The notes under the pieces are model-generated. The model was not told the origin of the DNA. It searched no databases and saw only the letters and a program-made list of their open reading frames with translations. Of a stretch of 64,000 bases of DNA, positions 8,239 to 24,548 are shown in pieces. A program made the position numbers and the translations under genes. Positions within the stretch are counted from its first letter, which is position 1, and each line of letters starts with the position of its first letter. The DNA is from Candidatus Cloacimonadota bacterium (GTDB lineage Bacteria; Cloacimonadota; Cloacimonadia; G963667145): NCBI GenBank assembly GCA_963667255.1, contig OY762940.1:416001-480000 (forward strand), read 5' to 3'.

Positions 8239-9606
8239 TTAATTGCTTTCTGCTCGTTTCAAAATCTTCGGGAATAAAAACACATAAAAAATTGATATCA
8301 CGATGAAGGAAGCTACCTCAGATAAAGGAATGGAATACCAAAGCCCCGCAAATCCATACCACTTACCAAAGAGCCACATAACTGGAAGCATCACCAAAAT
8401 CTGACGGATAATAGACTCGATAAAAGCAAGATAGCCTATGCCAAAACCTTGGAAAGAGACTCCGCCAACGATACATATTCCCACGAGTGGAAATCCCCAA
8501 GCGGTAATCTTCAGAGCTATTATTCCCAGCGAGAACAACTCGCCTTTCGCTCCGAAGAGCAAGAGTAACCACTCGGGAAACCAATAAAATAATGCGAAAC
8601 CTATCATACAAATCACAGTGCCGAGAGCCATTCCCGAAAAAATGGTTTTCTTCACCCGATGCACAGCTTTCAGACCGAAATTGTAACCAACTATCGGCAT
8701 TACACCCTGACCTATGCCGAAAATCGGCAAGATGATGAATAGATGCAAGCGGAAGTAGATTCCCAAGACTGCCAAAGCGTTTATCCCGTAAGCACCGACA
8801 ATCCTGCTGGCTCCTGCCATCATCACACTGCCGAGCATCTCCACCGTGGAGACGGGAACCCCGACTTTGAAAATTTCCGCAATTAAATGGTAATCGAAAG
8901 CGAAGTGAAATCTTTTCACGGAAATCTGATTGTCGCCTTTCAAGAGAGCAAGCAAAACAAATACTGAGGAGAAAACTCTCGCCAAGACTGTCGCCCAAGC
9001 AGCACCTTCTACGCCCATAGGATTTAGTCCCCAACCGCCGAAGATGAACCAAGGGTCGAGAATTATGTTGAGGATTCCGCCCAAAGACATGGTAATCATC
9101 GGAATCAAAGCGTTGCCCTCAGCTCGCAAAACCCCGCACAGCACCATGGGAGCGTAAACGAAGACGGAATTTATCAAGATTATCCTGATGTAAGACTCCC
9201 CGACAGCCAAGAGTTGCGGGTCGTCCGTGAAGATAGCTACCAGACTTTCGCTAAAGAAAAAGCCTACCAGAGAAGTGAGCAAACCGAAAATAACTATCAA
9301 TCCCAAGAGATGTTCGGCAGCTTCGTTGGCTCTAACGAGTTCGTTCCTGCCCAGTAGTCGCGAGATGAGGGAGTTGCCTCCTACTTCCAAACCAACAGCT
9401 ATGGAGATAATTACCATCTGCACCGGAAAACAAATCGTCAAGGCGGAAAGCCCTATCGTGGAATAGTGAGCAACAAAAATGCTGTCCACGACATTGTATA
9501 ACGCCTGAACGAATAACCCAATCACAGCGGGAATGGAAAGTTTGACCAACAAGCCAAACTCCTTGTCAGTCCCCAATCTTCTTGTTCTTTCTTTTTGCTC
9601 TAACAT
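8239..9606 (-). CDS. MATE family efflux transporter (MepA-like), copy 3
   Basis: LYNVVDSIFV, LNIILDPWFIFG, MGVEGAAWAT; ATG at 9606 follows GGAG SD. Confidence 0.9.
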   Translation of the reverse strand: MLEQKERTRRLGTDKEFGLLVKLSIPAVIGLFVQALYNVVDSIFVAHYSTIGLSALTICFPVQMVIISIAVGLEVGGNSLISRLLGRNELVRANEAAEHLLGLIVIFGLLTSLVGFFFSESLVAIFTDDPQLLAVGESYIRIILINSVFVYAPMVLCGVLRAEGNALIPMITMSLGGILNIILDPWFIFGGWGLNPMGVEGAAWATVLARVFSSVFVLLALLKGDNQISVKRFHFAFDYHLIAEIFKVGVPVSTVEMLGSVMMAGASRIVGAYGINALAVLGIYFRLHLFIILPIFGIGQGVMPIVGYNFGLKAVHRVKKTIFSGMALGTVICMIGFALFYWFPEWLLLLFGAKGELFSLGIIALKITAWGFPLVGICIVGGVSFQGFGIGYLAFIESIIRQILVMLPVMWLFGKWYGFAGLWYSIPLSEVASFIVISIFYVFLFPKILKRAESN

Positions 9607-9614
9607 CTCTACTC

Positions 9615-10973
9615 CTAAGCAATCGCTTTCAATTTTTTCGGAAAAACTGTCCACAACAAAAACAACATTAAACAGAAGGAAACGATAGCACCGAGAGGCA
9701 TAGCATACCACAACGCTTCCAAACCGAATTTATTACTGAGAAACCACATAGCCGGCAAAAGCACAAGCACTTGTCTGATGAGCGAAGAAAACATAGACGG
9801 AAATCCATTGCCCAAAGCCTGAAACGCCATACCACCCAGCATCACCACAGCCGTAAAAGGCATACCGTAACTACAAGCAATCAAAGCAGTTTCCCCAATA
9901 TTTAGAACTTCTCCCTCAAGTCCAAACAGCCTCAAAATAGGCACGGAAAAAAATCTCATCACTATAAATCCTAAAACACAAATAGCCGTTCCCAAAATGA
10001 AAGAAGATTTCATCGCCTGCACAATTCTCTCAGGTTTTTTGTGCCCGAAATTGTAACCAACAATTGGCATCAACCCTCGTCCCAAGCCATGCAAAGGCAT
10101 CATAATCAGCGAGTGCAACTTGAAATAAAGATTCATCACTGCCAAGGCTCCGGCTCCGTAACCTCCCAAAATCCTGTTCGCTCCGGCAAAAGTAACCCCC
10201 GCAAAAAGCTGAATGAGAGCGATAGGAATACCAACTTTGAAAATATCAAGGTAAATTTTCCAGTTGAACGAGAAATACCTCAGATTGAGCTTTATCTGAT
10301 TTTTCCCAAAAAACAAAATGAAAAAAGCAAAAGAAGAATTTACTATCCGTGAAAAAACAGTCGCCAAAGCAGCCCCTTTCACGCCCATAGCGGGGAAAAT
10401 CCACCAACCAAAAATCAAAAACGGGTCTAAAGCGATATTGATGAAAGCACCTATAAACATCGCCAACATCGGGATAAAGGTGTTTCCCTCAGCACGCAAA
10501 ATATCGCTGAGAACCATCGGAAACTGAAGAAAAATAGAACCCATGAGAATAATCCTCAAATAGTCGACTGCCATCGCCAAAAGTTGCTCATCTTTCACAA
10601 AGAAAGACAACAAAAAATGACTTCCGTAACAACCCACAAAGAAGGTCGCCACACTAAAAAATATGAAGAAGATAAAAGAGTGCAAAGCTATATTGTTCGC
10701 CAAATCGTTCTTCTGAGCTCCGAGAGTTCTGGAGAGAAGCGAAGATGTGCCGACACCGACTCCCGCGGTGATAACCATCATCAAAATCTGGATAGGAAAG
10801 CACAAGCCGACAGCAGCAAGTCCGAGATGAGAATAATGCCCCACAAAGATGCTGTCCACGATGTTGTAAGTGGACTGGATTAGCATTCCGCCCATCGCAG
10901 GAACTGACAGTTTGAAAAGCAAGCGAGAAACCGAAGCTGTTCCCAACCGTGCTGTTCTTTCTGTTTGTCCCAT
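9615..10973 (-). CDS. MATE family efflux transporter, copy 2
   Basis: YNIVDSIFV, NIALDPFLIFG, MGVKGAALAT. Confidence 0.9.
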   Translation of the reverse strand: MGQTERTARLGTASVSRLLFKLSVPAMGGMLIQSTYNIVDSIFVGHYSHLGLAAVGLCFPIQILMMVITAGVGVGTSSLLSRTLGAQKNDLANNIALHSFIFFIFFSVATFFVGCYGSHFLLSFFVKDEQLLAMAVDYLRIILMGSIFLQFPMVLSDILRAEGNTFIPMLAMFIGAFINIALDPFLIFGWWIFPAMGVKGAALATVFSRIVNSSFAFFILFFGKNQIKLNLRYFSFNWKIYLDIFKVGIPIALIQLFAGVTFAGANRILGGYGAGALAVMNLYFKLHSLIMMPLHGLGRGLMPIVGYNFGHKKPERIVQAMKSSFILGTAICVLGFIVMRFFSVPILRLFGLEGEVLNIGETALIACSYGMPFTAVVMLGGMAFQALGNGFPSMFSSLIRQVLVLLPAMWFLSNKFGLEALWYAMPLGAIVSFCLMLFLLWTVFPKKLKAIA

Positions 10974-10986
10974 ATTAAACTCGCTC

Positions 10987-12342
10987 CTAAGCTATGAGCC
11001 TTAGTTTTCGCGGGAAAAGGGTAATCAACAACGAAACCATAAAACAAAAAGAGATAAAAGAAGCAAGAGGAACAGCATACCACAACACACTCAAGCCGAA
11101 CTTATAGTTAAGAAACCACATCATGGGCAAAAGGACAATAACTTGTCTGATAAGCGAAGAAAGCATAGAGGGGATGCCAACTCCGAGAGCCTGAAAAACC
11201 ATACCGCTCAACATCTCCACAGCCACAAACGGAGTGCCGTAACTACAAGCAATCAAGGCAATTACCCCAAGATTTAGGACATCTCCCTCAAGTCCGAAAA
11301 TCTTCAAAATGGGAACTGGGAAAAACCTCATCACCAAAAATCCCGTAATACAAATCAAAGTTCCCGTAACAATGGCAATCTTCACAGTTTGCACGATTCT
11401 ATCGGGTTTTCTGTGTCCGAAATTATAACCAACCATCGGCATCAGACCTTGTCCCAAACCGAACAAAGGCATCATCACGAGAGACTGCAATCTAAAATAA
11501 AGCCCCATCACAGCCAACGCTCCAGCTCCATAGCTTCCCAAAATTTTGTTCGCTCCGGCGATGGTTATTCCTCCGAAAAACTGAATGAGAGCAACGGGAA
11601 CGCCGATTTTGAAAATCTCAAAATAAATCTTCCAATCAAACGAGAAATACCTCAACTTGAGTTTAATTTGGTTCTTGCCAAAAAGCAAAACGCATAGAAC
11701 AAAACAGGAGTTCACAATACGAGAAAACACTGTGGCTACAGCAGCTCCTTCCACACCCATAGAGGGAAAAATCCACCACCCAAAAATCAATATCGGGTCT
11801 AAAACGATATTGAGAAAAGCCCCTATCAGCATCGTAAGCATCGGGATAAAAGTGTTGCCCTCCGACCGCAAAATATCGTTGAGTATCATCGGGAAATAAA
11901 GGAAAATAGAACCGGTGAGAATTATCCGCAAATACCCCTCAGCCATCGTCAAGAGCTGCTCATCTTTCACAAAAAGCGACAACAAAAAATGACTTCCGTA
12001 TTGTCCCACGAAAAAGGTCAAAACTCCGAAAAATAAGATGAGGGAAAAGGAGTGCAAAGCTATATTGTTCGCCAAATCGTTCTTCTGAGCTCCGAGAGTC
12101 CTAGACAATAGGGAAGAAGAGCCAACGCCAATACCGGCGGCTATCACCATCATTAAAATCTGAATAGGAAAACACAATCCAAGAGCCGCAAGTCCGAGAT
12201 GAGAATAATGCCCCACGAAAATGCTGTCCACAATATTGTAAGCCGCTTGGATTAACATTCCAGCAACAGCAGGAACAGACAACTTAAAAAGCAACCGAGA
12301 GACAGGAGCAGTCCCCAAGCGAGCTGTTCTTTCATTTTGCAT
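10987..12342 (-). CDS. MATE family efflux transporter, copy 1
   Basis: YNIVDSIFV, NIVLDPILIFG, MGVEGAAVAT; close paralog of 9615-10973. Confidence 0.9.
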   Translation of the reverse strand: MQNERTARLGTAPVSRLLFKLSVPAVAGMLIQAAYNIVDSIFVGHYSHLGLAALGLCFPIQILMMVIAAGIGVGSSSLLSRTLGAQKNDLANNIALHSFSLILFFGVLTFFVGQYGSHFLLSLFVKDEQLLTMAEGYLRIILTGSIFLYFPMILNDILRSEGNTFIPMLTMLIGAFLNIVLDPILIFGWWIFPSMGVEGAAVATVFSRIVNSCFVLCVLLFGKNQIKLKLRYFSFDWKIYFEIFKIGVPVALIQFFGGITIAGANKILGSYGAGALAVMGLYFRLQSLVMMPLFGLGQGLMPMVGYNFGHRKPDRIVQTVKIAIVTGTLICITGFLVMRFFPVPILKIFGLEGDVLNLGVIALIACSYGTPFVAVEMLSGMVFQALGVGIPSMLSSLIRQVIVLLPMMWFLNYKFGLSVLWYAVPLASFISFCFMVSLLITLFPRKLRLIA

Positions 12343-14555: not shown

Positions 14556-15137
14556 CTATTTCAACGCGTTACGCACAGGTTCAAAGCTCTTGCGATGAAT
14601 TTCACACGCTCCGTATTTTCCCAAAGCCTCTATATGCTCTTTCGTAGGATAACCCTTGTGTTTAGCGAAATTGTATTGTGGGTATTTGCCAGACAATCTG
14701 ACCATTATGCGGTCTCGGGTAACCTTCGCCAAAATAGATGCAGCGGAGATACAATCGTGGTAAGCGTCGCCACCAACCACCGCTTTGGCAATATCCCGCA
14801 AATCATAAGGGACTTGATTGCCGTCTATCAGCACAAACTCTGGCTTCGGGTTTAACTCCTTGACAGCCTTGCTCATCCCAAACAAAGTCGCCTGCAAAAT
14901 GTTCATCTCGTCTATCTGCTTGGGGTCAACCTCCACTATCGAGTAGCCCAAGGCTCGCTCCACTATCAACTCGAACAACTCCTCCCGTTTTTTTTCGGAG
15001 AGTTTTTTGGAATCGTCCAACCCCTCTATGTGATTAGCTTTGTCCAATATCACGGCTGCTACAACCACAGGCCCCGCCAAAGGTCCTCGACCCGCTTCGT
15101 CCACACCTGCCGTCAAAAAATTTCTAAAACAATTCAT
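14556..15137 (-). CDS. rnhB: Ribonuclease HII
   Basis: GVDEAGRGPLAGPVV, DSKKL, IDGN, AASILAKVTRD. Confidence 0.96.
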   Translation of the reverse strand: MNCFRNFLTAGVDEAGRGPLAGPVVVAAVILDKANHIEGLDDSKKLSEKKREELFELIVERALGYSIVEVDPKQIDEMNILQATLFGMSKAVKELNPKPEFVLIDGNQVPYDLRDIAKAVVGGDAYHDCISAASILAKVTRDRIMVRLSGKYPQYNFAKHKGYPTKEHIEALGKYGACEIHRKSFEPVRNALK

Positions 15138-16042
15138 CTATTCAAGTCCTCTATTTTGTCTTTCCAATCGTCCATAAAACCCATTTTACCAATATCTATG
15201 CAAGGGAAGTCATCAAACAGTTTTTTAACTTTATCAAAAAAATCAAATTTAGAATTGATTTTCATCAACAAATAATTTATAATCAGAACAATTATAAAAA
15301 TCCTATTATTGCAAGACCCTCTCAACTCTTTCCAATACTTTGATTTATCTGGAAGCAATGGTTTAATTCCCAACTCCCTATTCCAAACCCTAGAGTAATG
15401 AGCACACATATTTCTCACTGTCCTAAGAGAATTTAGCCAAGAAATCAAAACCTTATGATGAACACCAAACTCTTTGGCTATCTCAGACTTAAGCTCATTT
15501 GTAAAGCCACCATAAAGTAAATTTAAGTTTCCAAATGATAATAGTTCTACCCCCATCCAAAGTGGCAAAAAATCGTGATTGTCTCCATAAGTAGCAAAAA
15601 AATGTTTAACATAAATTTCGCTAGTCTTTTTGACATTCAAGAGATAATCAGAACTAAGATATTTCAAAATTCTAGTATGCTGATCCTTTCTCAATTTAGG
15701 CAAATTATTTTTGTTTATATAGGCAAAACCATCATCATATTTACGAGTAAAATGATAAGTAAACTTCATTCTAAAGCAAATTTCAAGAATTTTAATGCTT
15801 TCAAAAAGTAACAGTCTTAACTTCTTGTCAAAATTGTAAATATCAACTATTTCTTTGAAAGTAGTGCCCTCTATAAAAAAATCAGTTTCTTTGTTTTTGA
15901 AAGGAAAAGTATAACCACTTAACTTATAATAATTTACTTTGTTTAGAAAATCAATTATTTCTGATTTATCTCCCATCAAGCCTCGTGCTAACAATTTCTC
16001 GGCTTGTTGTTCTACAGACAGTGGCTTTTTAGGGTATTTCAT
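15134..16042 (-). CDS. Abi_2 (AbiD/AbiF) family HEPN RNase, abortive-infection-type protein; low GC
   Basis: KPLSVEQQ..L.RGL, VNYYKLSGY, YNFDKKLR, PLWM..ELLSFG, HEPN motif RNMCAH. Confidence 0.9.
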   Translation of the reverse strand: MKYPKKPLSVEQQAEKLLARGLMGDKSEIIDFLNKVNYYKLSGYTFPFKNKETDFFIEGTTFKEIVDIYNFDKKLRLLLFESIKILEICFRMKFTYHFTRKYDDGFAYINKNNLPKLRKDQHTRILKYLSSDYLLNVKKTSEIYVKHFFATYGDNHDFLPLWMGVELLSFGNLNLLYGGFTNELKSEIAKEFGVHHKVLISWLNSLRTVRNMCAHYSRVWNRELGIKPLLPDKSKYWKELRGSCNNRIFIIVLIINYLLMKINSKFDFFDKVKKLFDDFPCIDIGKMGFMDDWKDKIEDLNR

Positions 16043-16044
16043 AA

Positions 16045-16097
16045 AATAAAAAAACCCATCGAGTAAGCTACATAAATGTAGCCCGACGGGTATGATA
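16045..16097 (-). ncRNA. Putative abiF-type structured RNA (antitoxin or leader) ending in a U-tract
   Basis: ACCCGUCG/CGAUGGGU stem plus inner GCUACA-UUUA-UGUAGC stem, followed by a U-run, lying between a promoter and the Abi ATG. Confidence 0.65.
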
Positions 16098-16149
16098 AGC
16101 ACAAATCATTCTTATCTTGCTTTGTGTCAACAAAAATCTTCATTATTCC

Positions 16150-17649
16150 CTATAAATATATATCCCGATTGCCTTTCGCTGTCTCTTCGTAATTCTTGAG
16201 GAACAGTTCGAGGAGGTTATGCTCTTGGAAAAATGGTGTTTTCTTAATCTCCTCAATCTCTTTGGCAATAACAGCTTCTCCGGCTTTTTTCGTCTCCTCA
16301 CTGGCATAATCGTCCAAAAACTCTCTGAAAGTTAAAACGGCGTTGAGTTTGCAAAACTTCCCCTCAGTGCAACTCCGCAAAAGCCCCATTATCTTGTCTC
16401 CCGTGCGACCACATCTGTAGCCCGCAGTGCAAAACGAACTGATATAACCCATCTTCGCATATTCGCCAACAGTGTAGTCCAAAGACGCTTGATCGCCAAG
16501 CGTGAACTGCACTTTGTCGGGATTTTCCTCTTGCAACTGGCTGGCACTATAAGCTCCAACTCCTATCTTGGAAGAGGCGTCCGTCTGCGTGCAACCAATC
16601 TGTATCATCTCCTTGCGGATGTGCTCTGGCTCTCTGGCGGTAACTATCATCCCCGTGTAAGGCACGGAAAGACGAAGAATTGCCACGATTTTTTTGAAAT
16701 CCTCATCGCTCACCAAATACTTGGAATTTTTGCTCATCTCCGCACCGAGAGCCTCTTTAAGCCGTGGAAACGAGATTGTATGAGGACCTATGCCCGTCTG
16801 TCTCTCCAAATCCAAGGCGTGATAAACCAGACCCATCACCTCAAATCGCCAGTCGTAAAGCCCGAACAACGCACCAATCGCCATATCGTCGATACCCGCA
16901 TCCATCGCTCTGTGCATAGCGTAGAGCCTCCAGCGATAATTCCCCTTAATCGTGTTCGCAGGATGCAATTTGGCGTAAGTCTCTTTGTGATAAGTCTCTT
17001 GGAAAACCTGATAAGTCCCGATTCCCGAAGCTTTCAATTTTTTCAAATCAGCGATGCACATCGGAGCGGCGTTGATATTCACTCGTCTTATCGCATTCTC
17101 GCCATTGCCCTTGGGAGTCTTCCGCTTCACACTGTAAATCGTCTTCACCGTGTCCACGATGTAGTTTATATCCGACTTGGGATGCTCTCCAAAAACCAAA
17201 ATCAACCGCTTGTGCCCCTCGTCAACCACAGCAGCAGTCTCGTTCTTGACCTCATCCATAGTAAGGATTTTACGCGTTTCCTGACAATTATCCGACCGAA
17301 ATCCGCAATAAGCACAATTGTTGACACACAAGTTCGCAGCATAAAGAGGAGCGAAAAATACCACCCGATTGTCATAAACCTTTCTCTTAATCTCGCCCGC
17401 AGCCTTATAAATTTTCTTCCAAAGTTTTTCGTCTTTCAAGTTGATAAGTTTCGCCGTCTCATTGGGAGTTAAAGTTTGGATGCTCAGAGACTTATCAATT
17501 ATCGCCAAAATCTCCTCTTCGCTGGGATTTGCTCCATCGTCAATCTGCTTCCAAATCTTGTCCTCATCTATAAAATCTTTGCCCTCAAGCAAAAATTTAT
17601 CAATCTCATCTTGCTTAATAACGCTGTCGCACCAATCTTTTACATTCAT
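16150..17649 (-). CDS. hydG: [FeFe]-hydrogenase H-cluster radical SAM maturase
   Basis: CVNNCAYC, VFQETYH, GPHTISFPR, C-terminal CX5CX19C. Confidence 0.95.
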   Translation of the reverse strand: MNVKDWCDSVIKQDEIDKFLLEGKDFIDEDKIWKQIDDGANPSEEEILAIIDKSLSIQTLTPNETAKLINLKDEKLWKKIYKAAGEIKRKVYDNRVVFFAPLYAANLCVNNCAYCGFRSDNCQETRKILTMDEVKNETAAVVDEGHKRLILVFGEHPKSDINYIVDTVKTIYSVKRKTPKGNGENAIRRVNINAAPMCIADLKKLKASGIGTYQVFQETYHKETYAKLHPANTIKGNYRWRLYAMHRAMDAGIDDMAIGALFGLYDWRFEVMGLVYHALDLERQTGIGPHTISFPRLKEALGAEMSKNSKYLVSDEDFKKIVAILRLSVPYTGMIVTAREPEHIRKEMIQIGCTQTDASSKIGVGAYSASQLQEENPDKVQFTLGDQASLDYTVGEYAKMGYISSFCTAGYRCGRTGDKIMGLLRSCTEGKFCKLNAVLTFREFLDDYASEETKKAGEAVIAKEIEEIKKTPFFQEHNLLELFLKNYEETAKGNRDIYL

Positions 17650-17824
17650 CTGAAACCTCCCAAATCTTTCTCGTTACCAACTCTTCCTATCACAAAAACA
17701 ACTCGCCATTTGTCAAGCCATTAATAATATCTAACGCTTTATAAACTTCTTAGGAAAAATTATTTGTTGACAAAAAATATAAACATATTTAAAAAACCAC
17801 AAATAAAATTTAAGGAGAAGTCGA

Positions 17825-18310
17825 ATGAAAAAATTTCTAAAAACTCTAATATATCTCTTGCCTTTACTCATAATAATTGCAGGATGTGATTTACCCTTCG
17901 GTAACGATGACGACGATGACAAAAATAGCACTACTTCAGTCGAAGGAACATGGATTAAAACCAATAACACAGGGAACAATAGTTTAAAAAGAATTCTTAG
18001 CGGAACTAGTTATTATTATTTAGAACTAACCTATAATACTACTCAAACAAACACTTACACAGAGTCGGAATGTTACGGAACCTTTTCAACTAATACCAGT
18101 TCATCCCCCAAAACAATTACTATCACCTACAACAGAATTCGAACAAGAGTCACTACCAACGGAACAACTGCTGACTGGTCAAGTTGGACAACTATAACAA
18201 ATGATGTAGCAACAAGATACTATAAACTTGAAAACAACTATTGGTACACCGTACCAACTTCAGACTATGATGCAAGTTGGTCTAAAGCACAAATATTTAG
18301 AAAACAATAA
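17825..18310 (+). CDS. Hypothetical Thr/Asn/Tyr-rich lipoprotein (lipocalin-like GTW motif), low GC
   Basis: Lipobox IAGC, SD AAGGAG, own TTGACA and terminator. Confidence 0.75.
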   Translation: MKKFLKTLIYLLPLLIIIAGCDLPFGNDDDDDKNSTTSVEGTWIKTNNTGNNSLKRILSGTSYYYLELTYNTTQTNTYTESECYGTFSTNTSSSPKTITITYNRIRTRVTTNGTTADWSSWTTITNDVATRYYKLENNYWYTVPTSDYDASWSKAQIFRKQ

Positions 18311-18328
18311 ATTTAGTTTGTTATGACG

Positions 18329-18359
18329 AAAGGGAATAGAAAATTCTGTTCCCTTTTTT
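18329..18359. terminator. Bidirectional intrinsic terminator
   Basis: AAAGGGAATAGAA/TTCTGTTCCCTTTTTT. Confidence 0.75.
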
Positions 18360-18364
18360 ATTCC

Positions 18365-19627
18365 TCAAAAATACCTCAGCATAATATACAAATGCGAGAT
18401 TGCCAAAAGAAACAAAGTAATTGGGATTCCGTATTTTAGAAATCTGCCAAAGCTGATTTTGTTGCCGGTTTTGGCTGCCATATTTGCCACGATGATATTT
18501 GCCGAAGCCCCTATCAGAGAGCCGTTTCCGCCAAGGCACGAGCCGATGGACAAAGCCCACCAAAGTCCGTTATTGCCCGAAGAATTGAGATGAACCTGCA
18601 CATCTTGCAAAAGCGGAATCATCGTTGCCACAAAAGGAATATTGTCCACAACAGCGGAAGCAATGCCCGAAAACCACAAAAGCACCTGAGCGGTAAACTG
18701 CAAATTGCCGTGAGTGAAAGCCAGCATCTTACTGCTGACAAGGGAGATAGCTCCCACTTCCACAAGTCCACCAACCATAATAAAAAGCCCCGAGAAGAAG
18801 AAAATGCTCGACCATTCCACTTTGCGAAAAATCGACTCCGCCTCGGTTTTGCCGATAATCATCAAGACGGAAGCCCCCGTCATCGCAATGGTGGCAGCCT
18901 CCAAATCCACAAATCCGTGAATGGCGAAACCCAAAATTACCAAAGCCAAAACCCAAAGCGACTTGAACAAAAGCTTGGTGTCCTTGATAGACATCCGCTC
19001 GTCAAAAGCCATAATTCTCGCCTTGTCCTCGTTGCTCACTCGCATCTGCTTGGCAAAGAGAAAATAGAAAATCACCGAGACCAAAATCAGTTGCACAACT
19101 ATGAGCGGAGCGACATTGAACACAAAATCCATAAACGACAAACCGGCGGCACTTCCTATCATAATGTTCGGCGGGTCGCCTATGAGAGTGGCTGTTCCTC
19201 CGATGTTGGAGGCGAAAATCTGCGAGAGTAGAAATGGAAGCGGGGAAATTCGCAACTCCTCAGCTATCAAAACCGAGACCGGAGTGATGAGCAAAACCGT
19301 GGTTATATTGTCCAAAAGTGCCGAAAAAACCGCCGTAATCATAAAAAGCATAATCAATATCTTTACCGGAGATCCGCCCACTGATTTTGCCAGTTTTATC
19401 GCCACAAACTCAAAAACACCCGTTCGCTCCACCGTGCTAACCAACACCATCATACTTATCAGCAGGACAATCACATTGAAATCGATGTGTCCCATCGCCG
19501 TTTCTTGAGGCAAAATATGCAAAATCAACATCAACGAAGCACCGAGGAGAGCCACCAAAGTTTTGTTGATTTTTTCCCAAGCTATCATCAAATATGACAA
19601 AACAAAAATCGTTATCGCACCCGCCAT
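18365..19627 (-). CDS. ArsB/NhaD (IT superfamily) transporter
   Basis: SALLDNITT, ASNIGGTATLIGDPPN, VDNIPFV, LGGNGSLIGASAN. Confidence 0.88.
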   Translation of the reverse strand: MAGAITIFVLSYLMIAWEKINKTLVALLGASLMLILHILPQETAMGHIDFNVIVLLISMMVLVSTVERTGVFEFVAIKLAKSVGGSPVKILIMLFMITAVFSALLDNITTVLLITPVSVLIAEELRISPLPFLLSQIFASNIGGTATLIGDPPNIMIGSAAGLSFMDFVFNVAPLIVVQLILVSVIFYFLFAKQMRVSNEDKARIMAFDERMSIKDTKLLFKSLWVLALVILGFAIHGFVDLEAATIAMTGASVLMIIGKTEAESIFRKVEWSSIFFFSGLFIMVGGLVEVGAISLVSSKMLAFTHGNLQFTAQVLLWFSGIASAVVDNIPFVATMIPLLQDVQVHLNSSGNNGLWWALSIGSCLGGNGSLIGASANIIVANMAAKTGNKISFGRFLKYGIPITLFLLAISHLYIMLRYF

Positions 19628-20546: not shown

Positions 20547-21284
20547 TTAAAACTCCAACACCAATTTAACGATGCTCATTACCATCGCCACGACCAGCAA
20601 AATCTTGGCAAAACCCTCACCTTTTTTGATAGCAATACTGCAAGAAGCATACGAGCCGAGCAATCCGCCAATCACCAGAGCCGGTGCATAGTGCCAACAA
20701 ATCTTGCCATGATAAGCCAAAATAGCCACTCCCACGATGTTATACAACATAATTATCACGAGCTTATTGGCATTCGCCGAAATCAAATCCAGATTTTTTA
20801 CCATACCCAAACCCGCAAGGAGCAAAAGCCCGGCTCCCACTTGCACAAATCCGCCGTAAAAACCGATGGCTACGAAAATCACAATCTGCAACCAGACCGG
20901 AAATTCCTTGTGTGTCAGCCCATTTTTTTGTCGCAAAATCACAAACAAAGCCACAAAAACAATCACTCCGGCAAGAGCATAGTCGAAAATCTCCTTGGGA
21001 ATGTTCGCCGAAACTTGAGTTCCGAGCAGGCTCCCTATGAAAATCGGCACAAATATCCGCCAATCAAACTCGATTTTCTTGTGCTTGCGGTGCAGAATGC
21101 TCGCTCCCAAAAGCGATTGACAAACCAAAGCAACCCGAAAGGTAGAAATAGCAACGATGGAAGGAATGTCGATAAACAGCATCGCCGTGATCACCACGAT
21201 AGAGCCAGCACCAGCCATCACATTGATGAACGAAGCCACAAAAGAGGCAGCCACCAACAACAAATTAATCCAAAGTTCTTCCAT
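20547..21284 (-). CDS. TauE/SafE (TSUP) family membrane transporter
   Basis: FINVMAGAGS, IGFYGGFVQVGAG, SANANK. Confidence 0.85.
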   Translation of the reverse strand: MEELWINLLLVAASFVASFINVMAGAGSIVVITAMLFIDIPSIVAISTFRVALVCQSLLGASILHRKHKKIEFDWRIFVPIFIGSLLGTQVSANIPKEIFDYALAGVIVFVALFVILRQKNGLTHKEFPVWLQIVIFVAIGFYGGFVQVGAGLLLLAGLGMVKNLDLISANANKLVIIMLYNIVGVAILAYHGKICWHYAPALVIGGLLGSYASCSIAIKKGEGFAKILLVVAMVMSIVKLVLEF

Positions 21285-21397
21285 TTATGATTGTTCCTAA
21301 AGCTTTTAAATTCTTAAACTACAATTTAACAACTCGCTCCCCAGCTCCAGACAAGCAACCATTTATTTCCTGTGCTAATGTCCCACAAGCCCCAACT

Positions 21398-21420
21398 GGA
21401 TTCCCGCTTTCGCGGGAAAG
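21398..21420. repeat. REP-like GC-rich palindrome (dRS3-like)
   Basis: GGATTCCCGC-TTTC-GCGGGAA; single copy in window. Confidence 0.6.
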
Positions 21421-21464
21421 AGGGCGAGATATATCTTTTTCATTCTTTGTTCTCGTTCCCAAGC

Positions 21465-23372
21465 TCATTTTCGCCTTGTGTAATGTCGCAAAGAAGTAAC
21501 CAACTGATAACCCAAAAATACAGAAAACAGTTTGAATAGGATAAAAGGAAATGTAGCTACTTGCTTTCCACAATGTAAAATACCTTCAGTATTGAAAGGA
21601 TTGATAAAACTTAAAAATTCTTTTTCTTTTTGAAAATAATGAACAACATAGATTAAAACAATAAAAGACAAAACGACAAAAGGCAAATAAACAAATAAAT
21701 TGATAGAACCTTTTAAAAATTTTTTGTCTAATGACAAATTCTTTGTCCCTAAATAACCAGTAAAAAATACTATCAGAGAAAGAACTCCTAAAACAATACT
21801 TAACTTAATAACTTTATTGTAATTGCAAAAATTATAATATAATAAAATCCCCAGAAAAAGCAAAAATAAATTCAAAGTCAAATATAGAAAGTAAATCCCC
21901 CTTCGATAAGCAAATTTTAAATTCATAAAGTGTTTGCTTTTCGAAATAAGAAAAATAAAAATTAGTATTGAACTAAAAAATAAAATTATAGGGTATCTAT
22001 AAAAATCTATATTTTTTTTTATCAAGAAATCAAAGTTATAAAAAAAGAGTCCTATAGCAAAATACCAAAAAAAAGGTAACATCCAATTTTGAGAAAAATT
22101 AGACACCAATTTCCCAAACGAAAAGACTAGACCTTGACTTATTGATTTTTTCTGCCAAAAATACTCATTCATTTCCAAAGAGTAAAAAACATTCGCATCG
22201 ATTATATTCCCCTGCAAATCGTTCACATGTTTCAATTGTCTCAAAGTATCTCTTGTCGCCTTTTCAAGTCTATACCCAAGATTTTCTCCCCAATTAACCC
22301 CATTAAAAATAGAGTTGCCGTTAGAGCCTATAAAAGAAGCATTTTCCAAATTAATTTCTTTTGCCTTAGATACATCAAAGTTATTAAATTCAACTCTTGA
22401 CAAATTACTATGATAAAAAGACAATTTTGAGTTTACACAAACATCTGTAAGTCTAAAAATTTTTGCAGAATTAGTAAAATATGCTAATTTAAAACTATCA
22501 ACGGCAACATTCTCTATAAAAACACTTCCATTTTCTTCAAAAGTAGGATTAGAAAAGATTATTTCACTTCTTTTATGTTTCTCTTCATTCTCATAATCTT
22601 CCATTATGTAGGTATTCGCTTTAAATTTGCAATCATCAAAGAAAACAGAATTAAAGTAAAACCAATTATTTTCCTCAAAAGTAACTTTTTGAAATTTCAC
22701 ATTTAGTTCTCGAATCTCTTTTGAGAAAAAAGGTTCAAAACTATTCCCTATATTTAAAACAGAACCATTAATAGATTTTGCTCCATTCAAGATTAAAACG
22801 CATATTTCTTTGTCTTTCAAACAAAGTGAAGAATCTTTATAAAAAGAAGATTCTCTAAAAAATAACTTTGAACATTTAATATCAAGAATAGAAACTTCAT
22901 CAAGAAAAATAGCTTTGTTAAATAGTAAATTGCTAAAAATACTGTTTTGGAAAAATATCTTTTCCTTAAACTTACATTCGCTAAAGCTAACACTATCATT
23001 AAATTTTACAAAAATATCATTGGTTTCACTAAAAGAAAAATCACTATAAAAAAAAGCTCCCTTAAAATTGAAAGATTTATTAAATTCGTTAACATCTATA
23101 AGTGTAGAAGGGTGGATATAAGAAAAAATAGAACCCCTTGTCTTTGGAAAAATAATGCCTGTAAAATCATGTTCTTTTACATTATCATTAGTTTCGTTTT
23201 TTGCTAACTCTTCTCTAAATTTATCCCAAAACTTTTTACATTTCTCTTCAGATTTACTCCAATCCCTATTTCCTTTATTGTCTTTTATATACCAATCTGT
23301 CTTCTCACAATGGAAGATACACTTATCTCCCTCGTAAACCTCGCTTCCACACCAACATTTATCTTCGGGCAT
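21465..23372 (-). CDS. Low-GC pentapeptide-repeat-like protein with multi-TM C-terminus
   Basis: N-terminal CWC...CIFHC, periodic FxxxxF repeats, several hydrophobic helices; SD GGAG/GGGAG. Confidence 0.7.
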   Translation of the reverse strand: MPEDKCWCGSEVYEGDKCIFHCEKTDWYIKDNKGNRDWSKSEEKCKKFWDKFREELAKNETNDNVKEHDFTGIIFPKTRGSIFSYIHPSTLIDVNEFNKSFNFKGAFFYSDFSFSETNDIFVKFNDSVSFSECKFKEKIFFQNSIFSNLLFNKAIFLDEVSILDIKCSKLFFRESSFYKDSSLCLKDKEICVLILNGAKSINGSVLNIGNSFEPFFSKEIRELNVKFQKVTFEENNWFYFNSVFFDDCKFKANTYIMEDYENEEKHKRSEIIFSNPTFEENGSVFIENVAVDSFKLAYFTNSAKIFRLTDVCVNSKLSFYHSNLSRVEFNNFDVSKAKEINLENASFIGSNGNSIFNGVNWGENLGYRLEKATRDTLRQLKHVNDLQGNIIDANVFYSLEMNEYFWQKKSISQGLVFSFGKLVSNFSQNWMLPFFWYFAIGLFFYNFDFLIKKNIDFYRYPIILFFSSILIFIFLISKSKHFMNLKFAYRRGIYFLYLTLNLFLLFLGILLYYNFCNYNKVIKLSIVLGVLSLIVFFTGYLGTKNLSLDKKFLKGSINLFVYLPFVVLSFIVLIYVVHYFQKEKEFLSFINPFNTEGILHCGKQVATFPFILFKLFSVFLGYQLVTSLRHYTRRK

Positions 23373-23462
23373 TCTATTCTCCCTGCTCCTTTGTCCTCAA
23401 ATTATCAATCATCCATTGTCAATTATCAATTACTATGCTCTTGGGCATAGTCAAGCACAACT

Positions 23463-24548
23463 CTATTCCACTTCTTCTTGCTTTTGTGCTTGATCACATC
23501 CCCTGCTTTCATATCTAATAAACCACAGCATCACCAGCATACCCACCACAACAAAGAGAAGTGTGGTCAATAGTTGCCCGACATCCGACGGCAAAGCAAG
23601 CTTATTGGTCATCAAAGACTGGTTTTGCAAAAGCACGATACTTCCATCAACTTTGCTATAAATATCAGTTATCCTACAAGCCTTGAACGGCCATATCGCA
23701 TACAACGAACCGAGCATCAAGCCGATGAGAAAATACAAAGTCTGGTCTTTGAAGCGATTGAATAGGTAGTTAAGCACTCTCACGAAAAGCAAAATGCCGA
23801 AAATCACACCCAGACCAAAGGCAAACAAGAGCATAATGTCGTCAGGATTGAAGCGATTAAGCCGCGAAACCGCACCGATTATCTGCGAATATCGCCCAAA
23901 AAGCAAGAGAATAAACGAACCGCTCACACCCGGAAGCACCATCACACTGATAGCCAGCATCCCCACGAGGAACAGGGAAACATACTCCATTATCGCATGA
24001 GAACCGCCTGCATTGGCTCCATAAAGAAAAATTTGTTGCAAATTGGCACTTTTTTGCAAGATTTTGGAAGACGGATCAACCATAGCTGAAATAATCACCG
24101 TCACACACAAACCCAAAATTAACCAAAAAATGAACGAATTTCGCCTATTTTTTATCATTTTATAGGGCAAATATAGCGAAAATAGGATTAAACCGAAGAA
24201 AAACCCGTAAGTCGGCGAATAATGATTTGCCAAAAGATACTTCATCAATCTGCTCATCAAAAGCAAGGCAATCACATCTCCAACGACTATTTTACCCAAG
24301 AAAAGGTTGTCATCTGCGAACAACTCCCCGAAAAACTCCTTGAATTTCCCCTTAAACAACTTACCAAACAAACTTTTCACATATTGCACATTCCAGCCCG
24401 CCACAGCATGCAAAAGGCGGTGGTAAATCCCCAAAACAAGAGCAAAAGTCCCGCCAGAAACTCCCGGAATAATGTCGGCTATACCGATAATCGCACCAAA
24501 AATAAACTCCATTTTTTCTATCTCCCTATAAATCAATCCATTATTCAA
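23463..24548 (-). CDS. DUF368 membrane protein (undecaprenyl-phosphate translocase family)
   Basis: GIADIIPGVSGGT and MVLPGVSGSFILL; start codon uncertain. Confidence 0.88.
   Translation of the reverse strand: MNNGLIYREIEKMEFIFGAIIGIADIIPGVSGGTFALVLGIYHRLLHAVAGWNVQYVKSLFGKLFKGKFKEFFGELFADDNLFLGKIVVGDVIALLLMSRLMKYLLANHYSPTYGFFFGLILFSLYLPYKMIKNRRNSFIFWLILGLCVTVIISAMVDPSSKILQKSANLQQIFLYGANAGGSHAIMEYVSLFLVGMLAISVMVLPGVSGSFILLLFGRYSQIIGAVSRLNRFNPDDIMLLFAFGLGVIFGILLFVRVLNYLFNRFKDQTLYFLIGLMLGSLYAIWPFKACRITDIYSKVDGSIVLLQNQSLMTNKLALPSDVGQLLTTLLFVVVGMLVMLWFIRYESRGCDQAQKQEEVE

Follow-up and report, generated by a model that had tools for sequence, protein, structure and literature searches.

The abiF locus

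All coordinates below are positions in the window, a stretch of 64,000 nt (OY762940.1, 416,001–480,000) from a genome of 1.59 Mb assembled as one contig (G000); its congeners are denoted G001–G005. The minus strand carries, in this order, hydG, an abiF module, rnhB, a gene for a 2-hydroxyacid dehydrogenase and a gene for an NYN protein (Table 1). The elements on the hydG side, the stem, bulge, inner hairpin and U-tract, and the start codon and ORF of abiF all lie where the initial annotation had placed them. Its remarks on the low GC content of abiF (0.30, against 0.48 for rnhB) and on the stop codon overlapping the rnhB start were also borne out: TGA and ATG share the sequence ATGA. GC content as low as that of abiF is found in ∼9% of 1316 crudely called genes of the G000 genome. 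The Shine–Dalgarno (SD) sequence of rnhB sits within the tail of the abiF ORF.

A contig assembled from a public run, probably from the same sample, covers hydG–abiF–rnhB unbroken with 0 differences; the gene order is therefore not an assembly artefact. Neither target-site duplication nor terminal repeats were found at the module ends, thus there is no sign of a transposon.

Table 1. Features of the abiF locus (positions in the window)
Feature	Position	Strand	Basis or remark
hydG	16150..17649	−	Upstream neighbour; TIGR03955 above its cut-off
−35 element TTGACA of likely promoter	16125..16130	−	Fixed spacing, strand bias
Likely degenerate −10 hexamer, 16 nt past −35	16103..16108	−	Inferred; no canonical TATAAT
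abiF-type RNA, ∼50 nt, likely antitoxin and own terminator	16046..16097	−	Best match of model R1; predicted start A16096
P1 5′ arm, 8 bp, pairs with 16061–16054	16084..16091	−	Fold; covariation
P2 (3 bp, two invariant G–C pairs) and fully paired inner hairpin	16066..16083	−	Fold, alignment
Single-stranded 3′ bulge, 4 nt	16062..16065	−	Fold; 5–6 nt in most homologs
P1 3′ arm and U-tract (16053–16043), straight into start codon	16043..16061	−	No separate SD
abiF, Abi_2 / AbiD-F family HEPN protein, 302 aa	15134..16042	−	Pfam, PADLOC and 8VZ6 matches
HEPN motif RNMCAH (residues 210–215; R210, H215)	15398..15415	−	Aligned with PbAbiF R210/H215
rnhB (RNase HII)	14556..15137	−	Downstream neighbour; ATG overlaps abiF stop

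Several other features of the window and of the matching congener regions were recorded. The gene run that holds the module has what appears to be a second swappable defence slot (21284–23463), bounded by tauE and a 361-aa ORF at 23463–24548. Its cargo differs by species: a pentapeptide-repeat protein in G000 and G004; a PADLOC PDC-S05 candidate defence gene in G001; a HepT/MntA-like pair in G003; both in G002; and no matched gene in G005. A low-GC ORF at 17825–18310 (plus strand), lipoprotein-like as judged from its sequence, was matched only in G001 (38% identity) and had no Pfam, NCBIfam or PADLOC match; one depth-2 contig in public run X2 omits 17797–18367 and is possibly a variant without this ORF, or another organism. 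G001 is without an orthologue of the 2-hydroxyacid dehydrogenase gene that follows the module in G002–G005 (G001 locus ∼10890–10988); only a distant paralogue was found in its genome. Three tandem transporter ORFs lie at 8239–12342 (minus strand), where congener regions match only two; we take them to be MATE-like transporters.

The AbiF protein

Abi_2 (PF07751) is the sole Pfam match of the abiF product (E 9e-51, 173 bits against a cut-off of 25.6). The protein also matches the PADLOC AbiD model (E 3e-72); no NCBIfam model was found for it. Its only PDB match by sequence is PbAbiF (8VZ6, E 1.5e-37), the sole solved relative. A Foldseek search with the predicted structure (pLDDT 73; residues 104–144 poorly modelled) gave 8VZ6 as the only match under 0.001 (E 8e-13, TM 0.68), while the best Cas13 fold match had an E of 1.2. 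The catalytic R-phi-xxx-H motif is complete, in agreement with the intact RNxxAH motif read earlier; the PbAbiF R210/H215 double mutant is reported as inactive in the Saunier preprint (bioRxiv 10.1101/2025.04.15.648962). An in-frame GTG at 16102 was rejected as the start of abiF: it lies upstream of the predicted transcription start, and homologs begin at an MKY-type Met.

A full HMMER search returned no relative of G000 AbiF closer than ∼43% identity; the closest by tree has 48%. A scan of genome contigs with the single protein produced 81 candidates, 0 of them confirmed, whereas an alignment-based scan did find loci. We counted 62 columns conserved at ≥90% across 129 non-genus homologs, a set biased towards conservation because it was fetched with patterns from our own alignment. 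G000 AbiF keeps 51 of these columns (including R210, N211, A214, H215 and R218) and has lost 11, against 8–9 in its congeners and a family median of 1. The losses include R40K and H216Y, position 216 adjoining the catalytic His. In the unbiased HMMER set (∼149 aligned relatives), K is found at position 40 in three sequences and Y at position 216 in five.

An abiF-type RNA upstream of the gene

The structured RNA of ∼50 nt with an 8-bp stem, a 4-nt bulge, a hairpin and a U-tract, as proposed in the initial annotation, is upheld by folding. A 51-nt piece of the minus strand folds at −20.0 kcal/mol (z −6.0; 0/200 shuffles as good); the fold of the plus strand, −14.8 kcal/mol, is weaker yet also non-random (z −4.5). 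The inner hairpin has a 4-nt loop, and one extra G.U pair lengthens its stem to 7 bp. The window contains a single copy of the RNA.

Comparison with the Rfam abiF model (RF03085), the check that had been suggested, gave no match on its own: nothing was reported at the G000 site even at E ≤ 10, nor in scans of the five congener loci at the same limit. The gathering threshold of RF03085 is 37 bits; the G000 site lies below it and so is not filed as a formal match to the family. In G001, the best RF03085 match genome-wide is the RNA preceding its abiF gene (18.8 bits).

Scans with the genus alignment provided a wider set of loci, from which the best 80 of 489 genome loci, the best 80 of 530 metagenome loci and all 61 viral loci were kept. 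The analysis covered 166 loci: both the genome and the metagenome set, a single viral locus, the G000 locus and four loci from a phylum search. A start codon was found at 164 of them. Among the 151 non-genus loci with enough upstream DNA (near-duplicates included; best 80 of 489 genome and best 80 of 530 metagenome loci), the same RNA element was detected by a strict pattern upstream of 143, and seven of the eight misses have the element by eye. The CUCU loop, present in 135 of the 143 non-genus cores from these best-80 sets and in 5/5 congeners, is absent from the G000 RNA, which has a paired hairpin instead; P1, P2 and the bulge are kept. No protein column tracked the CUCU loss among the seven listed partners compared, one of which was mis-called.

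The covariation among upstream regions of homologs anticipated by the initial annotation was found. Removal of redundant entries reduced 123 distinct cores to 73 non-genus RNAs, whose alignment shows three helices. In it, 98.2% of the cells are paired and both partners vary at 12 of the 14 pairs; 0/500 shuffles reached as high a value, and slid controls gave 35–45%. In P1, both-side changes occur at 8/8 pairs among the 73 RNAs and at 3/8 within the genus, where 5/14 pairs covary overall (model-fitted alignment). The G–C pairs are invariant, and the bulge and loop are conserved in sequence, over many phyla. The layout of the alignment is the same as that of the RF03085 consensus, and two of its members score above the RF03085 cut-off (52.9 and 44.1 bits); among 14 homologous loci compared with the Rfam model, two pass the cut-off, six fall below it and six have no match.

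We built an RNA model, R1, from the 73 non-genus RNAs, the genus being left out. Its best match in the window is the RNA at 16097–16046 with 37.9 bits, the next match having 12.1. Genome-wide, the pre-abiF RNA ranks first in 6/6 genomes of the genus, G000 scoring 38 bits compared with 37–43 for the congeners. Because related loci share the element, two of them pass Rfam, the pairs covary and R1 finds the site, the G000 hairpin belongs to the abiF motif; by sequence criteria it is a divergent abiF-type RNA, linked to RF03085 through bridging members. Most of a large subfamily that spans phyla thus escapes the Rfam abiF model, whose cut-off is passed by two of 14 tested loci; the model built here does find the members of this subfamily.

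Some loci deviate from the single-RNA arrangement. In L079 and L164, a single abiF gene is preceded, at 1363–1482, by two tandem abiF-type RNAs (68.6 and 66.7 bits), an arrangement also found in RCd22 of Clostridioides difficile. The upstream regions of three other Cloacimonadota AbiF genes (L017, L019 and L020) are without an R1 match; L019 and L020 have a common leader of a different kind, possibly another RNA type.

Putative promoter, terminator and translation signals

The TTGACA reported at 16130–16125 is present, and its spacing is fixed in 6/6 species, with 30 nt from TTGAC to the CATACC of the RNA. In the G000 genome as a whole, TTGAC occurs upstream of genes 250 times in sense and 128 times in antisense orientation; counting from it, T peaks at position 28 (0.58 sense versus 0.42 antisense) and A at positions 35–36. 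At the module, position 28 is T and the start position is A in 6/6 species. From these TTGAC-linked peaks, transcription is likely to start at 16096. A consensus scan at the module found no canonical −35/−10 pair and no terminator. Genome-wide, the promoter-like pattern of G000 (strong TTGAC, 16-nt spacer, −10 without its first T, A at 35–36) may be lineage-specific; a −10 of the form nAnnnT follows 68 of 250 sense and 18 of 128 antisense TTGAC sites.

The abiF start codon has no SD sequence in the −13..−4 region (+1.0 kcal/mol), as first noted. G000 does use SD motifs, at 534 of 1137 ATG starts (47%) versus a 10% background; a site of SD strength in −13..−4 is present in ∼80% of the 130 distinct leaders from outside the genus (best 80 of 489 genome and best 80 of 530 metagenome loci). 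In the congeners, SD-like bases fall inside the 3′ arm of P1. The distance from P1 to the ATG is 11 nt in G000, with a family median of 23 and values ≤12 in 2/151 others; from the RNA end to the ATG there are 9–11 nt across the genus (with the upstream ATG used for G002). With SD absent in G000 and SD-like bases buried in P1 in the congeners, weak translation of abiF is likely, by analogy with AbiD1, which is described as controlled at translation and weakly translated (PMC2661086).

The same features would suit an RNA acting purely in cis, as attenuator and translational block on abiF, and not as a protein-binding antitoxin: hairpin and U-tract adjoin the ATG, the SD-like bases of the congeners lie within P1, and AbiD1 is under translational control. 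We consider this very improbable. The conservation of the G–C pairs, bulge and loop over many phyla goes beyond the needs of a terminator, the closest solved relative, PbAbiF, is bound to its ncRNA, and RCd22 is described as acting in cis as well as in trans. A protein-binding antitoxin RNA is therefore the preferred reading.

A 34-codon ORF (16143–16039, minus strand) starts 6 nt past the hydG stop, spans the promoter and the RNA, and ends with a stop codon that overlaps the abiF ATG. A short ORF (13–40 codons) in the same frame relative to TTGAC is found in all six species, with no shared peptide. Seen post hoc, these ORFs are not clearly above background (comparable ORFs at 136 of 412 G000 gene ends; 9–78% in shuffles). 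A short ORF over the promoter could aid read-through.

Distribution and probable exchange of the module within the genus

Each of the six species of the genus has exactly one Abi_2 gene; an Abi_2 match was found in six of 226 other genomes of the phylum, many of them incomplete. The module lies downstream of rnhB in G001–G005 (5/5) and upstream of it only in G000, a one-gene move in which RNA and ORF shift together between gene slots. The insertion between hydG and rnhB described initially thus holds for G000 and not for its congeners. Non-genus loci have neither rnhB nor hydG in the flanks examined (≤1.5 kb).

These positions bear on two further explanations. Since the hairpin with its U-tract lies 58 nt past the hydG stop, it might be just the hydG terminator, unrelated to abiF, a reading raised in the initial annotation as damaging to its proposal. 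That reading is refuted by the movement of the RNA together with abiF, as the element follows rnhB and not hydG in the five congeners and precedes abiF at at least 143 of 151 unrelated loci; we leave it next to no chance.

The second explanation, that the module is retained for regulating or protecting, via read-through, rnhB and the housekeeping genes downstream, draws on the ATGA overlap, the position of the module beside rnhB in 6/6 species and the short ORFs running from the stop of the upstream gene towards the RNA in 6/6. We give it hardly any credence: rnhB is upstream of the module in five of the six species, no rnhB occurs around any non-genus locus (flanks ≤1.5 kb) and short ORFs of this kind are found at a third or so of G000 gene ends (136/412). 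Read-through governing rnhB, as earlier suggested, therefore lacks support as a selected role, with the module after rnhB in 5/5 congeners and rnhB having its own SD; mechanically, read-through may still matter in G000.

Sequence divergence of the module differs from that of its surroundings. By nine neighbouring genes, G000 and G001 are sisters (support 100/100; 73–94% identity), whereas their AbiF proteins share 47% identity. The G000–G001 path in the AbiF tree is ∼10 times that of the neighbours, the G002 and G005 tips being ∼2.4 times; fourfold sites differ at 20/27 in abiF versus 466/1082 in the neighbours (p 0.0015). In the pair G003–G004, promoter, RNA and ORF have 90–94% DNA identity and the flanks 69–89%, with 7/64 versus 482/1101 fourfold sites differing (p 4e-8); both p-values are rough, as sites were treated as independent. 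This contrast suggests that G003 and G004 exchanged the entire module recently. All six abiF frames of the genus are intact, and dN/dS is 0.26 in G003–G004, the one unsaturated pair.

In an 18-row tree, built without a mixture model, the six AbiF proteins of the genus are monophyletic (100/99), and the other five group to the exclusion of G000 (98/95). The AU test did not reject the grouping of G000 with G001 expected from plain vertical descent (p 0.27), and a 138-row quick tree gave the genus clade a support of only 41. Monophyly of the genus AbiF could be partly compositional, because all six proteins have odd composition. The G000 copy likely has its origin in a deeply diverged congener or in an old paralogue, not in the sister lineage: probably an allele of a deep congener took the place of an earlier copy, or one of two old paralogues was lost. 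The six species likely exchange versions of the module, which would have entered the genus once, stayed beside rnhB and been exchanged as a whole unit.

A more far-reaching scheme, which we put forward as speculative and on balance unlikely, is that in this Cloacimonadota genus (1.5–1.6 Mb) the AbiF module constitutes a fixed defence slot, in which toxin and RNA alleles with distinct specificities are swapped between species by recombination. The CUCU-less RNA and altered protein of G000 would then be a re-coded pair that congener RNAs do not cross-neutralise, and the housekeeping transcript would get past the inserted terminator thanks to short ORFs that are coupled to the gene upstream. If true, the six natural pairs would be a small ready set for studying shifts in AbiF RNA–protein specificity, a step proposed before Cas13 guides. 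A streamlined genus that keeps AbiF in 6/6 species, compared with 6/226 genomes elsewhere in the phylum, is in itself a compact natural series for antitoxin specificity. Among the papers listed by a non-exhaustive literature search, none dealt with an AbiF system in Cloacimonadota.

Proposed mode of action

The locus very probably encodes a two-part AbiF module: a likely promoter would drive an abiF-type RNA of ∼50 nt, likely ending at its own U-tract, and this RNA likely binds the predicted HEPN RNase encoded behind it and keeps it blocked; on imbalance caused by phage or stress, the RNase would cleave host RNA and bring the cell to a halt. The basis in hand is the protein family, the fold, the catalytic motif, the membership and covariation of the RNA, the promoter spacing, the co-movement of RNA and gene, and the presence in 6/6 species. 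Against it can be set the RNA score below the Rfam threshold, the absence of CUCU, the loss of 11/62 conserved columns and the non-canonical −10.

The steps of the mechanism are taken from studied relatives. By analogy with PbAbiF, C. difficile AbiF and AbiD1, the majority of transcripts would end at the hairpin and so supply antitoxin RNA in excess; rare read-through would yield a toxin mRNA that is poorly translated, having no SD in G000 and, in the congeners, SD-like bases in the P1 3′ arm. The bulge would plug the active site of the HEPN dimer, as in PbAbiF, and phage infection or stress would release the predicted RNase. The blocking part is likely the 3′ bulge at 16065–16062, by analogy with the bulge of the PbAbiF RNA as described in PMC12737573. 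The model of short-RNA excess, read-through, HEPN-dimer blocking and release follows descriptions of C. difficile AbiF/RCd22 (bioRxiv 10.1101/2025.04.15.648962) and of PbAbiF (PMC12737573, PMC13064643).

Could the module instead be an attenuated or decaying relic, AbiF-derived, with little or no RNase activity and no further need of the RNA block? H216Y, R40K and nine further changes at conserved columns, the lost CUCU, the absent SD and the long branch would agree with this, but the frame is full-length with R210 and H215 intact, the same H-to-Y change occurs in five other full-length relatives, and the RNA keeps P1, P2, bulge and promoter spacing with a score like those of the congeners. We regard decay as quite improbable and retain the active module.

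Comparison with known systems

The initial proposal of an AbiF HEPN toxin with a cis-encoded abiF-type RNA antitoxin is supported, at the level of sequence and structural models, by family, fold, motif, covariation and an RNA model blind to the genus. On every feature examined at the protein and structure level, the locus is by its sequence an AbiF RNA toxin–antitoxin module; the evidence on protein and RNA therefore adds it, as a new member, to a type III-like toxin–antitoxin system that is already published. The new elements are a divergent AbiF member and the way the module behaves in a single genus with reduced genomes; the kind of system is known. The finding matters mainly as annotation and does not establish a new kind of system.

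A ToxIN-type array system and Cas13 were ruled out by the single RNA, the fold, the size and the one motif. Classical type III systems (ToxIN, CptIN, TenpIN) have tandem RNA repeats, whereas G000 has a single copy, and in place of their ToxN-like fold only PbAbiF fits by fold, Pfam giving Abi_2 alone. Cas13, including Cas13e, combines a large two-HEPN effector with a repeat–spacer array; G000 has 302 aa, one motif and one RNA.

The lactococcal AbiD/AbiD1/AbiF group resembles G000 in the PADLOC AbiD match, a leader terminator with poly-U and weak translation. Unlike in G000, a second hairpin masks the ribosome-binding site (RBS) of AbiD1. Phage Orf1 switches AbiD1 on. The G000 RNA shares with RF03085 the two helices with a bulge and the GC/GC core; it differs in scoring below detection, in its shorter bulge and in having a paired inner hairpin where the CUCU loop would be.

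The C. difficile AbiF_Cd/RCd22 system is like G000 in its Abi_2 protein with RNxCAH and in the abiF motif. Its promoter shared by RNA and gene and its terminator before the gene have putative counterparts in G000, where the conserved −35 and spacing and the U-tract are seen, with empty consensus scans. RCd22 is described as lying in a prophage, with two abiF motifs and a separate terminator, a leader of 168 nt and an RBS; G000 has one motif whose own stem comes before the U-tract, with a leader predicted at 54 nt and no SD, and it sits among chromosomal housekeeping genes.

PbAbiF with its RNA AbiFr (8VZ6; Zilberzwige-Tal et al., Cell 2025) is, as described in PMC12737573, PMC13064643 and the Saunier preprint, like G000 in R210/H215 in register and in one upstream RNA with a single-stranded bulge. 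The two proteins share ∼27% identity by structural alignment, G000 having K for R40 and Y for H216.
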